Below the pieces are notes generated by a model. The model saw only the letters and a list, made by a program, of their open reading frames with translations. It ran no database searches and was not told where the DNA came from. Below, one piece after another: positions 55,750-60,869 of a stretch of DNA of 64,000 nt; the first letter of the stretch is position 1, and each line of letters starts with the position of its first letter. The position numbers and the translations under genes are program-made. Origin of the DNA: a virus. Location of the stretch: the IMG/VR virus record IMGVR_UViG_3300045988_100041; one strand, written 5' to 3'.

Positions 55750-56859
55750 TCAGTTGTCCCGCTTTGCGGAAAGATTTTTCAGTTCTTTCACACACTGCGC
55801 AGTGATTTTCACTGCTTCATCGATCTTGGCAAAGTCTTTTTCCTGTTCGGCTCCGAATCTTGGCTGATATTCGTCCATCGGAAGCCGGAGCGTATAGTCA
55901 AAAGAAAACCGGACGGCGCTTCGGGCGCGTTCTTCCTGGTATCCAGCGGCAAGCAGGACTCTCGACGGCTTATTGTCTCCGCTGGAACACGCCGCACCGC
56001 CAGACACCATGACATTCTCAGAAGAAAGTCTCAGGACAAGGGCGGTATTTTCAACGCCTGGGAACGAGATATTTGCGATATAGGGAGACTGCGAAGATTT
56101 GTTTCCTTCGTAGACGCTGCCGTTTAATTTTGCGTCCGGGATCTCGTTCATCATACCATCAATGAGCCGGTCGTGCAAGCGGCCTGCCATTTCTGCAAAC
56201 TCCGCAAGATGCTGTGTCCGGAACCAGAGCGCCTGAGAAAACGCCGCAGCGAGTGCGACAGAAGGGGTTGCGAAATGTTCCAGTTCATAGATGCTTTCCG
56301 GATCTTTTGCAATCAGAACACCGATGCCGACGGGCGCGCCGAATTTATGGCCGCCGCCTGCAATGTAGTCGATTCCGTCCGACTTGTAATTGAGCTGGAA
56401 TTTTCCCATGGCTGCGGTGCAGTCGGAAAAGCATACATTCCACGCGCCTGTGTTTTCTAGGTCGTAAATGAATCCGGTTTCGTTGCAGGTGTGGATATGC
56501 GCAAGAGCGGCTTCTTTTTTGCGGGACCTGCTGTGAATCTTACCGTAATCGGGAAGTCTTTTATAGACTGCGTCGTGTTCGTAGGAAGAACAAAGCGCGT
56601 CTCGATAATCGTTCAGGAGGCGAAGCGCTGCAAGGCGGCAGCTTTCGGTGGCGCTGGATGTGAAGATGACCTGCTCCGGTTCGCAGTTTATGCACGCTGC
56701 GACGATTTTTTTCTGTTCCTGCAAAAAGGCGTTGTTTCTTGTCCCGCTTGCGTGGATGCTGTTTGGATTCCCGACTTCACCACGGCATACCCTTGCAAAT
56801 TCGCGCATGGATGAGGAAAGCACCGGCGATGTGGCTGCGTAGTCGAGGTAGATCAGCAT
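55750..56859 (-). CDS. class-V aminotransferase / cysteine desulfurase (NifS/IscS-like)
   Basis: YLDYAATSP, GNPNSIH, SSYEHDAV, FSDCTAA, GGGHKFGAPVGIGVL (PLP lysine) and VSGGAACSSG (active-site Cys loop). Confidence 0.8.
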   Translation of the reverse strand: MLIYLDYAATSPVLSSSMREFARVCRGEVGNPNSIHASGTRNNAFLQEQKKIVAACINCEPEQVIFTSSATESCRLAALRLLNDYRDALCSSYEHDAVYKRLPDYGKIHSRSRKKEAALAHIHTCNETGFIYDLENTGAWNVCFSDCTAAMGKFQLNYKSDGIDYIAGGGHKFGAPVGIGVLIAKDPESIYELEHFATPSVALAAAFSQALWFRTQHLAEFAEMAGRLHDRLIDGMMNEIPDAKLNGSVYEGNKSSQSPYIANISFPGVENTALVLRLSSENVMVSGGAACSSGDNKPSRVLLAAGYQEERARSAVRFSFDYTLRLPMDEYQPRFGAEQEKDFAKIDEAVKITAQCVKELKNLSAKRDN

Positions 56860-57368
56860 GGCGCGGTCCCTCCGAAGTTTGGAACGAAGGAAGAAAGAAG
56901 CTGATGATAGAACTTATTTTGCGCCTGCAGCTCAATGCACCGCTCTTTCAGCGAGGATAGTTCTGCGTCCGGTTCTTTGGAAACGGGAAGCACGCCGGAA
57001 GGCCCCGGATTTTTGGGTTCATTTGCGCCGCTCAGACCGATGGACACCAGAAGGGCGCTGTCTACGAGCTGCATTTCATGCTGCTCCAAGGTCGAGATAT
57101 AGCTTCCAAGGCGTTCTTTGCTGACGGTATAGATGTTTTCACACAGGACGGTATTTTTCACGCCTTTCATTGTGATTTCCACGTGCGTCGGAAGGGGCTT
57201 TTTCTTCTCTGCGGTCGTTAAGTAGCAGATCTCTATGTTCGGAGAAAATAGGTTATTTTTCTCGTTTGAAACGACAACGGCAGGTCTTGACTTGCGAATT
57301 TCACTTCCAAGCCCGTCTTTCCAGTTATCTACCCAGAAAATATCGCCGCGATGGATGCTACGTTCCAT
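56853..57368 (-). CDS. MazF/PemK-fold toxin-like protein with C-terminal extension
   Basis: IHRGDIFWVDNWKDGLGSEIRKSRPAVVVSNEKNN ... ICYLTTAEKKKPLPTHVEI ... LCENIYTVSKERL, plus a roughly 60-aa tail. Its stop overlaps the desulfurase start by 7 nt. Confidence 0.7.
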   Translation of the reverse strand: MERSIHRGDIFWVDNWKDGLGSEIRKSRPAVVVSNEKNNLFSPNIEICYLTTAEKKKPLPTHVEITMKGVKNTVLCENIYTVSKERLGSYISTLEQHEMQLVDSALLVSIGLSGANEPKNPGPSGVLPVSKEPDAELSSLKERCIELQAQNKFYHQLLSSFVPNFGGTAPC

Positions 57369-57469
57369 TTCTTTCGTCCTTTCTTTCACATTTTTCTATG
57401 TACGGCGGCACGTCCGCACGATATGCCGCCTATTCAGTTTAATTGCGTTTGAACTGAATATTGAGGGTG

Positions 57470-57769: not shown

Positions 57770-57845
57770 TGGTGAGCCGTCCCGGAGTCGAACCGAGATT
57801 TTACCAGTTATGAGCTGGTCGCTCTAGCCTTTGAGATAACGGCCC
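57770..57845 (-). tRNA. tRNA-Met or tRNA-Ile2 (anticodon CAU)
   Basis: Hand-folded cloverleaf. Acceptor GGGCCGU/ACGGCUC, anticodon arm ACCAG-CUCAUAA-CUGGU, T-arm CUCGG-UUCGACU-CCGGG, encoded ACCA. The D-stem has one mismatch. Confidence 0.8.
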
Positions 57846-58221: not shown

Positions 58222-58380
58222 TGGCGGATGCGGCGGGGATTTGAACCCCGCATGGTGCAGACAGTATGCGACGAGCTTTATTCCCGTCCGAGGTGGCTGC
58301 TTGAACCCCAATAGGTTTGAGTGTGCCGCGCTTTCCTGCACCGCATACCCTTGCTACCTTTTCCATTCGGCCACGCATCC
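58222..58380 (-). ncRNA. 159-nt tRNA-like RNA with greatly extended central arm
   Basis: Nested perfect 7-bp helices 58226-58232/58374-58380 and 58264-58270/58342-58348. T-arm CGGGG-UUCAAAU-CCCCG. Class-II-like D-arm UGGCCGAAUGGAAAAGGU. 3' end is G-CCA. Confidence 0.45.
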
Positions 58381-58389
58381 ATATTTTGC

Positions 58390-58713
58390 TCAGATTTTTG
58401 CGGTACAGCGGTATTTGCAGGTTTTCCAGTCCGCGAGGCTGCACGACTCGAAGATGCAGGGTGATCCGGCGTACTCCGGCTTGTCGCAGAATTCGTGGAT
58501 CAGCTCCGGATACAGGGCGTTCATTGCAAAAAGGTTTCTTGCCGAATCCGGCCCGACAAACATCGGCTTTCCTTTCGGTGCGTAGTCACGGATCTGATAG
58601 GGGATTTCGTCCCGTTCGCTGTAGAAATGGACCGCGACCGGCGTCACGTCCTTCTCTACGACGACGTAGACATTTTTCGTGCCGTTGGTGAGATAGCGAA
58701 TGTCCAAGCTCAT
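58390..58713 (-). CDS. hypothetical protein embedded in the RNA locus
   Basis: ATG after AAGGAGGAAAACAA, inside track ORF 58390..58827. 107 aa, no motif recognised. Confidence 0.55.
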   Translation of the reverse strand: MSLDIRYLTNGTKNVYVVVEKDVTPVAVHFYSERDEIPYQIRDYAPKGKPMFVGPDSARNLFAMNALYPELIHEFCDKPEYAGSPCIFESCSLADWKTCKYRCTAKI

Positions 58714-59081
58714 TTGTTTTCCTCCTTGCTTTGTTTTCTTGGTTTTGTACAGCCTGCCTCCCGGCTCCGGAGCCGCCGTTACTCGACGCCTAGACGCTCC
58801 CGTGCAGAAGTTGGTCTGCGTCGCCACGCCGGTTTTTCTTCCATCCTTTACGCCTCACAGCGGACTGTCGGAAGGCCGGGAGGGTAAGCCACGGAACTTT
58901 TCAGCCCTGCGCCGGTGCATCGGTCGCATCCGTTTTTTCACACATTAAGCCGGAGCCAGCTAATTAAATTCGCAATCTGTCGTACTTGCACTACCTACAG
59001 ATTGAGCGGATGGCCGGATATATCGTTTCACCAAGCCTTTGGAACCTCAAAACTTTCCCTGAGTCCGCCGCAATACCCATG

Positions 59082-59155
59082 TGGAGTGCGTGAGGAGAAT
59101 CGAACTCCCACCATCAGATTGGAAGTCTGATGTTCTGCCATTAAACTACACGCAC
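59082..59155 (-). tRNA. tRNA-Gly (anticodon UCC), copy 1
   Basis: Acceptor GUGCGUG/CACGCAC, anticodon arm UCAGA-CUUCCAA-UCUGA, T-arm GGGAG-UUCGAUU-CUCCU, U73 and CCA encoded. Confidence 0.9.
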
Positions 59156-59162
59156 ATAAATG

Positions 59163-59287
59163 GCTCCCCGTTTTACTCCGGTGCGGGAGCGTTCTTCCCG
59201 AAAACCCATAGCCAGGCTTCCCAGCTTGGAGCACCGGAATCTCTGAAATGTTCCGGTGAGCGCCTTCGCTTACATGGGTGACGCTTT
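59163..59287 (-). ncRNA. structured RNA repeat, copy A (125-nt core)
   Basis: Fills the gap between the two tRNA-Gly genes. Shares its fold with copy B, with compensatory substitutions (see finding at 59163-59610). Confidence 0.55.
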
Positions 59288-59295
59288 AAAGAGTA

Positions 59296-59369
59296 TGGAG
59301 CGGCATACGGGAGTTGAACCCGCGTTTTCAGATTGGAAGTCTGACGTGCTTCCGCTGCACCAATGCCGC
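59296..59369 (-). tRNA. tRNA-Gly (anticodon UCC), copy 2
   Basis: Acceptor GCGGCAU/AUGCCGC, D-stem GUGC/GCAC, anticodon arm UCAGA-CUUCCAA-UCUGA, T-arm GCGGG-UUCAACU-CCCGU, U73 and CCA encoded. Confidence 0.9.
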
Positions 59370-59493
59370 ATAAGGCGCGCATAGGATGGAAGAGGTACAA
59401 GACCATCCCATGCACTTCCGGTCTTTCCCGGCTGCCAGAACAATCCCTATGGAGGGGCAGGCGGGAGGCTCGTGAACCACTGCCTGCATAGAA

Positions 59494-59610
59494 GCTCCCC
59501 ATTTTACTTGGGTGCGGGAGCGCTCCTACCCAAAACCAACAGCCAAGCTTCCCATCTTGGAGCGCCGGACGATTCCGGCGAGCGCCTGCGCTTACGTTGG
59601 CGGTCGCTTT
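59494..59610 (-). ncRNA. structured RNA repeat, copy B (117-nt core)
   Basis: Aligns with copy A from AAAGCG to GGGGAGC. All helices are conserved through paired changes. Confidence 0.55.
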
Positions 59611-59668
59611 TCTGCACAGAAAGGAGACATTACGCCTCGCCGCAGCAGCACAGAAGGGAGCTGCGGCA

Positions 59669-59739
59669 TGGTGGGAAAATGCGGAATTGAACCGCAGCAT
59701 GAAGGCTTTATGTTCCTCCCTAGCGCACCTGCTTTTCCC
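59669..59739 (-). ncRNA. aberrant tRNA-like element
   Basis: Canonical acceptor GGGAAAA/UUUUCCC, T-arm UGCGG-UUCAAUU-CCGCA and ACCA. There is no foldable D-arm, and the anticodon-like arm GGAGG/CCUUC carries a 9-nt loop AACAUAAAG. Confidence 0.4.
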
Positions 59740-59768
59740 GCATGGCGTGACGGGTCACGCCTTGTTTT

Positions 59769-60869
59769 CTATGCGATCTCCGACCGGCTTTTTTTGACGG
59801 TAGGCTGCGGCCGGAGGTTTGAGAAAAAATCATCGCCCTGCATTTCAAGATACCGCTTGTTGCGGTCTGCCTGACGGTCTTTTTCTTCCTGCACAAGAAG
59901 CGTCTGGCGGCGTTTCCTGCGGCTGGTGAGTTTGCCGGAATAGATCTGCGTGACTTCTGCCGATTCATGCCCGAGCTTTGCTTGCAGTTCTTCCAGAGGC
60001 ATGCCGCCGTTGAGATCGAGCCGCGCGCCGACGTGCCGCAGGTCGTGGGACCGGACATTATCTACACCTGTCACGCGCTTTACATGGCGGCGGACAAGCT
60101 CTGTCAGCCATTGACGGCTGCCGGCGTGCCAGGATTCTGCGTTGAAGTTTCTGGACGTTCTGACTTTTTCTGCGCAGGTTCCAAAGAGCGGGTCATCGTC
60201 TTTTGCATAGGAAGGGCGGATGCCGCTTTTAAGATAGAGCCTTACGGCGGTCTGCGCGATGGGCGGGAAGTCTACAACGCGGTATTTGTTGCCCTTGCCG
60301 TGCTCTACGGTCAGCTCTTCGTTTTCCCAGTCCAAGTCGGCAGGCGTGAGGGCGAGAAGTTCGCAGTTTCTGATCTCTGTGGACAGAAACAGGACGGCGA
60401 TTGCATAGTTTCGCTCCCATTCCGGAACGCCGCTTGATTTTGGGGAGTTGTTCCGCCACAAAAGTGCCGCCTGTTCGTCGGTCAGAATCTGGTCATAGGG
60501 TCTTGCATCTTCCTGACGGGTGTCCGGCATGAGGAATTTGGAGACGGGGTTTTTGTCATAAAAGCGGTAGTCTCCAAGCTGGGGAGACGAGGCGTATTCA
60601 TAAAATCCGGAAAGAACTTTCAGATACTGCTTGACGGTGGACGGTTTTCTGCCGGTTGCAAGCAGCATATCACGCCACGCCTGAATGTCTGTGAAGGATA
60701 CCTCGTGGTTCCAGTTGTCCCGATCTTCAATCATAAAGAGGCTGAACAGTTTTATCACGTTGTCGATATTTTCAACCGTATTTTCTGAGCGCCCGATGGC
60801 GATCATGTTTGAACGGTAGGAACGGTAGGCTTCCATGAACTTCTTTTCTTCCTTGATGGGCGGTGCCAT
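59769..60869 (-). CDS. second tyrosine recombinase/integrase (XerC/D-like)
   Basis: N-terminal SAM-like core-binding region, then SHDLRHVGARL and LGHESAEVTQIYSG. ATG after AAAGGAGCAATACAT. Confidence 0.85.
   Translation of the reverse strand: MAPPIKEEKKFMEAYRSYRSNMIAIGRSENTVENIDNVIKLFSLFMIEDRDNWNHEVSFTDIQAWRDMLLATGRKPSTVKQYLKVLSGFYEYASSPQLGDYRFYDKNPVSKFLMPDTRQEDARPYDQILTDEQAALLWRNNSPKSSGVPEWERNYAIAVLFLSTEIRNCELLALTPADLDWENEELTVEHGKGNKYRVVDFPPIAQTAVRLYLKSGIRPSYAKDDDPLFGTCAEKVRTSRNFNAESWHAGSRQWLTELVRRHVKRVTGVDNVRSHDLRHVGARLDLNGGMPLEELQAKLGHESAEVTQIYSGKLTSRRKRRQTLLVQEEKDRQADRNKRYLEMQGDDFFSNLRPQPTVKKSRSEIA

Follow-up and report, generated by a model that had tools for sequence, protein, structure and literature searches.

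The window analysed here, 64,000 nucleotides (nt) of viral DNA from IMG/VR record IMGVR_UViG_3300045988_100041, carries on its minus strand roughly 1 kilobase (kb) of non-coding sequence between a tyrosine integrase gene and a small open reading frame (ORF) starting near 58710. Within this region lie two tRNA-Gly(UCC) genes and two copies, A and B, of a motif of about 125 nt, with a tRNA-Met gene further along; ARAGORN and Rfam agree on all three tRNA genes (Table 1). The motif had been noticed in an earlier inspection of the same DNA (the original prediction), which took it for a structured minus-strand RNA. Alignment of the two copies bears out the coordinates and conserved blocks given there: they share 83% identity, and the P4 loop of copy B is shortened by a 9-nt deletion. 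Copy A also lies where it had been placed, adjoining tRNA-Gly 1 across a gap of 7 nt and starting 8 nt past tRNA-Gly 2. The motif is a folded RNA of an evolutionarily conserved, previously undescribed family with a well-supported fold, and it holds a constant position before tRNA-Gly(UCC).

Homologues were gathered by pattern scans of IMG/VR and of a metagenome collection, by one protein fetch guided by the integrase, and with a covariance model (R1) made from the first 15 distinct motif sequences. A search of viral and metagenome contigs with such a model had been suggested by the original prediction, and the pairs that it proposed are supported by the instances obtained, about 45 in number with about 25 distinct sequences from gut viral and metagenome contigs. 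Nearly all members come from IMG/VR sample set 3300045988 and from ENA/GenBank metagenome contigs of 50–110 kb. R1 scores copies A and B at 161.5 and 150 bits (E 1e-42 and 1e-39), and with filters off it finds no match beyond them on either strand of 9 kb of the window. Among 50,697 phage records, BLAST matched only the tRNAs and a different non-coding stretch downstream, not the motif. An unspecific pattern run on genome_contigs gave at least 120 stretches, with no family member among the loci tested by the covariance model (through L220). All members belong to a single lineage of large human-gut phages. In a public assembly collection, 338 blocks index the exact integrase protein of the window, always on contigs shorter than 200 kb, which points to a common phage of ~80–110 kb, mostly seen as free or episomal DNA, as the carrier.

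The fold was evaluated on a model-based alignment of 20 distinct rows. In the nested structure 94% of the cells are paired and 11 pairs are changed on both sides; its covariation score was reached by none of 500 shuffles, and sliding the partners by 1–3 columns left only 38–48% paired. Compensatory changes are seen in P2, P4, P5 and P6, so that the four helices for which such changes had been claimed from the two copies hold across the ~25 distinct homologues, and also in a pseudoknot of 5 base pairs (bp). P2 occurs as ACCCAUG/CAUGGGU, GCCAAC/GUUGGU, ACCAAA/UUUGGU and ACCCAC/GUGGGU, and P4 as CRCCGGAA/UUCCGGYG, with one lineage having CGCUGGAG/CUCCGGUG. Five of the six P5 pairs covary (strands CCAAGC, CCAGGC, CCAUGC, CUGGUC, CCAAAC, CCUGCU and CUGAUU, each with its complement), and P6 is either GCUCCC/GGGAGC or GCACCC/GGGUGC. 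To the fold proposed earlier we add a fifth hairpin, P3 (AGCG/CGCU), and the four-way junction that it forms with P2, P4 and P5. P3 reads AGCG-MAGG-CGCU and is invariant save for one mismatch; being invariant, it is neither supported nor contradicted by covariation.

The pseudoknot, which had also been proposed earlier and as H-type, consists of five pairs that join the P6 loop to the stretch immediately 3′ of P2 (UUCGG/CCGGA, UUGGG/CCCAA, GUUGG/CCAAC and UUGGG/CUCAA), one position varying between C-G, G-C and U-A. Its cells are paired in 88.6% of cases versus 65.5% in shuffles, with a covariation score of 0.63 versus 0.25, and none of 500 shuffles equalled it. A loop that pairs with an outside strand, and does so with covariation, indicates that the H-type pseudoknot is real. 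By inference from the sequence, the adjacent U-run and the invariant GUAAAA could lengthen it by 3–4 A-U pairs. Outside P1 (an outer helix considered below), the paired positions hold 45 G-U cells and 7 A-C cells. Since the opposite strand would turn the G-U pairs into mismatches, the homologues indicate that the functional RNA is on the minus strand, the same as the tRNAs and the one on which the original prediction had placed it. Single-sequence folding energies are no better than those of shuffles (z −0.8 and −0.5 for the two copies), and the support for the fold thus comes from homologue comparison.

Two further pairings were tried and rejected. The outer helix P1 (leader CUUUCUG with CGGGAAG), returned by RNAalifold, is only 83% paired and overlaps the better-supported pseudoknot; subtypes B, L245 and L074 break it, and neither copy A nor the truncated forms described below have it. 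In a long-range GGCGCUC/GARCGCU pairing, the partner can be A, U or G with no compensating change, and the truncated forms lack it. The invariant unpaired nucleotides of the motif are GUA, AAGARC and GUAAAAC.

P2, P3, P4 and P5 are joined by linkers of UA (P2–P3), none (P3–P4), CU (P4–P5) and C (P5–P2). The topology is that of a cloverleaf: a P2 of 7 bp, the invariant UA, a P3 of 4 bp, an abutting P4, CU and a P5 of 6 bp. The junction is likely to form two coaxial stacks, P3/P4 and P5/P2, the latter followed by a U-run and then by the H-type pseudoknot. The P4 loop has no conserved triplet and varies in size, from 4 nt in subtype B to 12 nt in L245, with 11 nt in the majority of members. In the P5 loop, UGRGAW, the first position is U and the fifth is A, an arrangement that we take to be compatible with a T-loop motif although it departs from the tRNA T-loop consensus; P3 has the 4-nt loop MAGG, and UUU follows the closing stem. 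A natural truncated form, present in eight contigs (L022, L105, L124, L317, L320, L321, L322 and L326), consists of the junction without the pseudoknot; the first P2 pair is lost, and 6 nt (AAACAU or AAAUAU) after P2 the tRNA-Gly begins. Because these contigs keep the junction alone, the pseudoknot module is dispensable or accessory.

Table 1. Coordinates of the motif copies, their helices and the surrounding features in the window
Feature	Position	Strand	Remarks
Tyrosine integrase gene	59769-60869	-	directly 5′ of the RNA cluster
Hairpin GGCGUGAC..GUCACGCC	59744-59761		just past the integrase stop codon (59769-59771)
tRNA-like element	59669-59739	-	begins 29 nt past the integrase stop codon
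Hairpin GCCGCAGC...GCUGCGGC	59639-59667	-	between tRNA-like element and leader; read by eye
Leader CUCCUUUCU	59618-59626	-	7 nt 5′ of copy B
Motif copy B	59610->59494	-	
Copy B, P2	59601-59595 / 59541-59535	-	
Copy B, P3	59592-59581	-	
Copy B, P4	59580-59563	-	tetraloop form
Copy B, P5	59560-59543	-	
Copy B, pseudoknot	59533-59529 + 59512-59508	-	UUGGG + CCCAA
Copy B, P6	59521-59516 / 59499-59494	-	
Spacer, copy B to tRNA-Gly 2	59370-59493	-	124 nt; several hairpins read by eye
tRNA-Gly(UCC) type 2 (tRNA-Gly 2)	59296-59369	-	124 nt 3′ of copy B, 8 nt 5′ of copy A
Motif copy A	59287->59163	-	AAAGCG to GGGAGC
Copy A, P2	59279-59273 / 59210-59204	-	
Copy A, P3 hairpin	59270-59259	-	
Copy A, P4	59258-59232	-	
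Copy A, P5	59229-59212	-	
Copy A, pseudoknot	59202-59198 + 59181-59177	-	UUCGG + CCGGA
Copy A, P6	59190-59185 / 59168-59163	-	
tRNA-Gly(UCC) type 1 (tRNA-Gly 1)	59082-59155	-	starts 7 nt 3′ of copy A
ORF of 175 amino acids in public gene calls	59173-59700	-	spans both motif copies and tRNA-Gly 2
GC-rich non-coding stretch	58711-59081	-	~370 nt, between tRNA-Gly 1 and an ORF of 106 amino acids; conserved in related contigs
Third tRNA-like sequence	58222-58380	-	acceptor stem GGAUGCG/CGCAUCC, tRNA-Ser-like D arm (UGGCCGAAUGG), canonical T arm, 3′ GCCA
tRNA-Met	57770-57845		
PemK/MazF-type toxin gene	56853-57389	-	178 amino acids, ~60-residue C-terminal extension, no adjacent antitoxin gene
Class-V aminotransferase gene	55750-56859	-	cysteine-desulfurase-like; start overlapped by toxin gene

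All motif instances found are followed by a tRNA-Gly with anticodon UCC, at a distance of 4–7 nt in most and of ~125–135 nt in three subtypes (window copy B, L001 and L026). The partner tRNAs are of at least five sequence types that share only 43–59 of 74 positions, and the motif (75–95% identical) is conserved more strongly than the functional tRNA-Gly that it adjoins. One motif subtype occurs with different tRNA types (L074 vs L041). The two tRNA-Gly genes of the window, described earlier as duplicated, are identical at only 50 of 74 positions and are not recent duplicates of each other. In relatives, the copy-A subtype with a directly adjoining type-1 tRNA-Gly is found as a single module (e.g. 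in L004 and L005), and the copy-B subtype stands directly 5′ of a type-1 tRNA in L275. The divergence of the tRNAs, and relatives that have one module each with the subtypes in other combinations, indicate that the window holds two different motif-plus-tRNA modules in tandem and not a recent duplication in place. A scan of IMG/VR with the type-1 sequence gave no case of a type-1 tRNA-Gly without the motif. Since the members all come from one phage lineage, the link may be functional or inherited.

A T-box-like kissing contact between the P5 loop and the anticodon loop was also considered and rejected. GGAAG could pair with the CUUCC of the window tRNAs, but there is no covariation: the same P5 loop is found with tRNAs whose loop is CCUCCAA, and P5 loops of UGAGAA and UGAGAU occur with an unchanged UCC. 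The CCUCCAA anticodon loop, which has C at position 33 in place of the near-universal U, is found in four tRNA-Gly(UCC) types (L002 7042-7115, L245 4388-4461, L001 4144-4218 and L026 8241-8314).

At every locus with the upstream region read, the order on one strand is integrase, short hairpin, tRNA-like element, second hairpin, CUCCUUUCU leader, motif and tRNA-Gly. The tRNA-like element combines an acceptor stem of 7 bp and a central arm of 9 bp with a canonical T arm (loop UUCAAUU or UUCGAAU) and a reduced D region (GCAGGUGCG), and its 3′ terminus reads ACCA or ACAA (ACCA in the window). All three of its stems covary, and it is not called by ARAGORN. In some phages the central loop has 7 nt with U33 and purine 37 (UUCAUAG, CUCACGA and UUCCCGG), and the element is also found just 3′ of integrase genes in L245, L005, L002, L074, L117 and L026. 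It may be an odd tRNA, an attachment-site region, or both. The 9–10-nt leader CUCCUUUCU, which on the RNA strand has the sequence of the Firmicutes-type 16S rRNA 3′ tail, is invariant and lies 5′ of the motif in every other phage. It is absent before copy A, which directly follows tRNA-Gly 2 and so keeps only AAAGCG. In several subtypes the leader is preceded by a hairpin whose 3′ strand ends in GCGGC or GCUGG and which is reminiscent of 16S helix 45.

Between 57600 and 60000 no sigma-70-like promoter is predicted, and we found no convincing minus-strand terminator between integrase and tRNAs or between motif and tRNA; the two terminator-like calls that fall within the motif correspond to its P5 hairpin. 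With no promoter or separating terminator between integrase and tRNAs, the region fits a single precursor. The hairpin just past the integrase stop codon scores as a terminator on the plus strand only, where transcription would come from the motif and run toward the integrase gene. The ORF in public gene calls that covers both motif copies and tRNA-Gly 2 (also called in L312, 7170-7697) is almost certainly spurious.

Further downstream are genes for HU, a PemK/MazF-type toxin and a class-V aminotransferase. In L245 the HU gene lies 3′ of tRNA-Gly, within ~40 nt of it, and the toxin and aminotransferase genes are both kept beside the tRNA cluster in related phages. The GC-rich non-coding stretch that follows tRNA-Gly 1 has no Rfam match at E≤10 in a scan of 58600–59900; around 58883–58967 it is 83–85% identical to two human-faecal phage records (MT835513 and MT835520), and it may be another structured RNA or a long leader. 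In the third tRNA-like sequence an insertion brings the length to ~159 nt, about twice that of a tRNA, and a GC-rich hairpin comes after it; its Rfam matches are weak only, with 18.9 bits to the tRNA-Sec model and 22 bits to the mascRNA model.

The motif was compared with known RNA families. Rfam 15 at gathering thresholds returns only the three tRNAs on the whole window, and at E≤10 on both strands of 58600–59900 it returns nothing on either copy, in line with the earlier failure to match the motif to a known family. The matches in that interval thus include none of the known self-cleaving ribozymes (HDV-like/theta, hammerhead, twister, twister-sister, pistol, hatchet and glmS), and neither search returns a riboswitch class, including glycine and T-box. 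No terminator-like site that might serve as an expression platform lies between P6 and the tRNA, and a tRNA gene downstream means that there is no ribosome-binding site. On this evidence we find nothing to suggest that the motif is a riboswitch or ribozyme of a known kind in Rfam 15 at E≤10. Our literature search found no described tRNA-adjacent phage RNA of such a kind.

Several known systems nevertheless resemble the motif in part. It is tied to one tRNA species, as T-box leaders (including glyQS) are, and its P5 loop is mostly GGA-containing and T-loop compatible. Unlike them, it has no T-box sequence, specifier-loop architecture, terminator/antiterminator or Rfam match, it precedes a tRNA gene and not an aminoacyl-tRNA synthetase gene, and in two subtypes GAGAA or GAGAU takes the place of its GGA with no change in the UCC of the tRNA. 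With the P1/P7 C4 and P4 CI RNAs it shares small size, structure, a phage origin, plausible tRNA-like processing and a place in a temperate control region near the integrase. It differs from them in its host group, in being always joined to tRNA-Gly, and in having no conserved loop with an identified complementary target; there is no Rfam C4 match, and the only strongly complementary conserved sequence, in the absence of a systematic target search, is the leader against generic Shine-Dalgarno sites. GOLLD and ROOL are orphan structured RNAs of prophages and phages, often found beside tRNA genes; at 500–800 nt and with another architecture they are unlike the ~125-nt motif, which matches no Rfam model. 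The HDV-like theta ribozymes sit immediately beside tRNA genes of human-gut phages (PMC10879173) and are pseudoknotted, as the motif is, but lie 3′ of suppressor tRNAs and have a nested double-pseudoknot HDV fold. The motif is 5′ of tRNA-Gly, about twice as long, built on a four-way junction and without an HDV-family match.

Based on these observations, we tentatively favour, at somewhat less than an even chance, the interpretation that the motif is a non-coding RNA co-transcribed with tRNA-Gly and freed by tRNA-processing enzymes as a compact, tRNA-shaped, trans-acting RNA. A polycistronic precursor would contain the integrase message, the tRNA-like element, the motif and tRNA-Gly. The 3′ end of the motif RNA would be set by the RNase P cut at the 5′ end of the next tRNA-Gly, and its 5′ end either by processing of the upstream tRNA or tRNA-like RNA or by RNase P acting on its own closing stem. 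Once freed, the RNA might serve in trans, as a decoy for or a partner of some tRNA-binding factor linked to tRNA-Gly. Besides the conserved fold, its strand, the tRNA-Gly(UCC) that follows every member and the region's fit to a single precursor, several features suggest such a course. At 70–80% of its default threshold ARAGORN calls the junction as a tRNA with correct boundaries in 6 of 13 members, while some call is made in 15% of shuffles. The junction-only form, which stands 6 nt before the tRNA in eight contigs, resembles a tandem tRNA, and tRNA-shaped RNAs appear to be a theme of the region, since just upstream there is another non-canonical tRNA-like RNA, also with stems that covary. Among known systems, the motif resembles tRNA and tRNA-like RNAs released by tRNA processing (mascRNA from MALAT1 and the bacterial YrlA Y RNAs) in its four-way junction, 7-bp closing stem, UA linker, 4-bp second stem and two likely coaxial stacks; it is embedded among real tRNAs, and, as in mascRNA, the variable arm at the anticodon position is unable to decode.

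A number of points weigh against this interpretation. Unlike tRNAs, mascRNA and YrlA, the motif matches none of their Rfam models; neither copy has an RF00005 match at E≤10, where the true tRNAs score 69–72 bits. ARAGORN by default calls only the three real tRNAs and not the junction. The hallmarks of a tRNA are absent, namely a 7-nt anticodon loop with U33, a UUCRANY T loop, a 7–11-nt D loop with GG and a 3′ CCA; the loop of the arm at the anticodon position ranges from 4 to 12 nt, a 1-nt bulge separates P5 from P2 in the acceptor/T-like stack, and there is an extra 3′ H-type pseudoknot. With atypical P5 and P3 loops, the P5–P2 bulge, a variable loop and no CCA, recognition by RNase P is uncertain. 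A purely trans-acting RNA would need no place beside tRNA-Gly in particular, and within one phage lineage the constant synteny could be inheritance, not function.

The main rival is a cis-acting leader, a riboswitch-like sensor or processing module that sets the amount of mature tRNA-Gly(UCC), in which the pseudoknot near the tRNA 5′ end would gate RNase P access or the stability of the precursor. We regard it as possible but unlikely. The strict linkage to tRNA-Gly(UCC) across at least five divergent tRNA sequences speaks for it, as does the pseudoknot end lying 4–7 nt from the tRNA in most members, and the conservation is aptamer-like, with invariant junction and pseudoknot nucleotides and a variable peripheral P4 tip. 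It has to contend, however, with a spacer of ~125–135 nt in three subtypes, with a truncated form that is kept though wholly without the pseudoknot, with the lack of a terminator or other recognisable expression platform between motif and tRNA, and with the lack of a match to a known riboswitch class; moreover, we know of no riboswitch that controls a tRNA gene. The same spacer variation (from 4 to ~125–135 nt) and the same truncated form speak against a self-cleaving ribozyme of a new class, theta-like but 5′ of the tRNA, whose role would be to trim the tRNA precursor, given that cleavage at such varying distances cannot define the tRNA 5′ end precisely. Here the size, the pseudoknot, the invariant unpaired GUA, AAGARC and GUAAAAC and the phage tRNA context are all compatible, and ribozymes beside gut-phage tRNAs have a precedent (PMC10879173). 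There is, however, no match to an Rfam 15 ribozyme family at E≤10, and the helices could not be threaded by hand onto the HDV, hammerhead or twister topologies, so that we rate a ribozyme as decidedly improbable. Slightly less so, although still given little weight by us, is a retroregulation or processing signal of the integrase transcript, resembling lambda sib in position, which would be co-transcribed with int only in the unintegrated genome and would direct its cleavage or decay. The cluster begins 29 nt past the int stop codon on the same strand, which has no terminator there, and the layout is constant in all loci with the upstream region read. A sib-type signal, however, needs only an RNase III hairpin and not a four-way junction with a pseudoknot; copy A of the window lies behind another tRNA and far from int; and the link to tRNA-Gly would go unexplained.

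The cloverleaf-like topology and the other aberrant tRNA-like sequences of the region recall a functionless leftover, either a tRNA pseudogene in decay or a neutral relic of duplication in the tRNA array. This appears very improbable and is already disfavoured by the covariation, which keeps five helices by compensatory changes across subtypes, in a motif that is better conserved than the functional tRNA-Gly beside it. Equally hard to credit is a function of the plus strand, either as the 5′ untranslated region of a small gene or as inverted repeats that serve as DNA sites, e.g. attP arms. The reverse complement of the leader, AGAAAGGAG(G), is a perfect Shine-Dalgarno sequence (AGAAAGGAGG); an ATG, ~10 nt from the motif, stands 5–7 nt past the conserved AGAAAGGAG block in four of the five subtypes of the leader and is kept though the spacers differ; and a terminator-like hairpin for that strand lies beside the integrase gene. 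The ORFs starting at this ATG, however, range from 15 to more than 131 amino acids and are unrelated in sequence, which leaves no conserved protein, and copy B of the window has ACG, not ATG. The 45:7 ratio of G-U to A-C cells favours the minus strand, and the model scores nothing on the plus strand; we have therefore rejected the small ORF as a candidate. Protein-binding DNA sites, for their part, would conserve sequence and not complementarity.

Going beyond the favoured reading of a processed, tRNA-shaped RNA, a bolder proposal, which we consider rather improbable, is that the motif is the founding member of an RNA class dedicated to one tRNA species. It would be either a sensor or ribozyme that gates the maturation of tRNA-Gly(UCC) or a processed tRNA-shaped decoy that protects phage translation, in both forms together with the upstream tRNA-like RNA and the 16S-tail-like leader. 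As a decoy it might bind a tRNA-targeting nuclease or the phage's own orphan MazF/PemK-type toxin.

The tRNAs of phages have come increasingly to be regarded as a means of recoding and of evading tRNA-cutting host defences, and to our knowledge their expression and processing are largely unknown. In a widespread phage lineage, the motif is kept before tRNA-Gly(UCC) though the sequence of the tRNA itself has changed greatly. Should the RNA control or accompany tRNA-Gly, bacteria and their viruses would have in it their first RNA partner dedicated to a tRNA gene; should it be a processed tRNA mimic, the mascRNA-type RNAs would gain a counterpart in bacterial viruses. Either way, it offers a defined 125-nt target for cleavage, probing and binding work.

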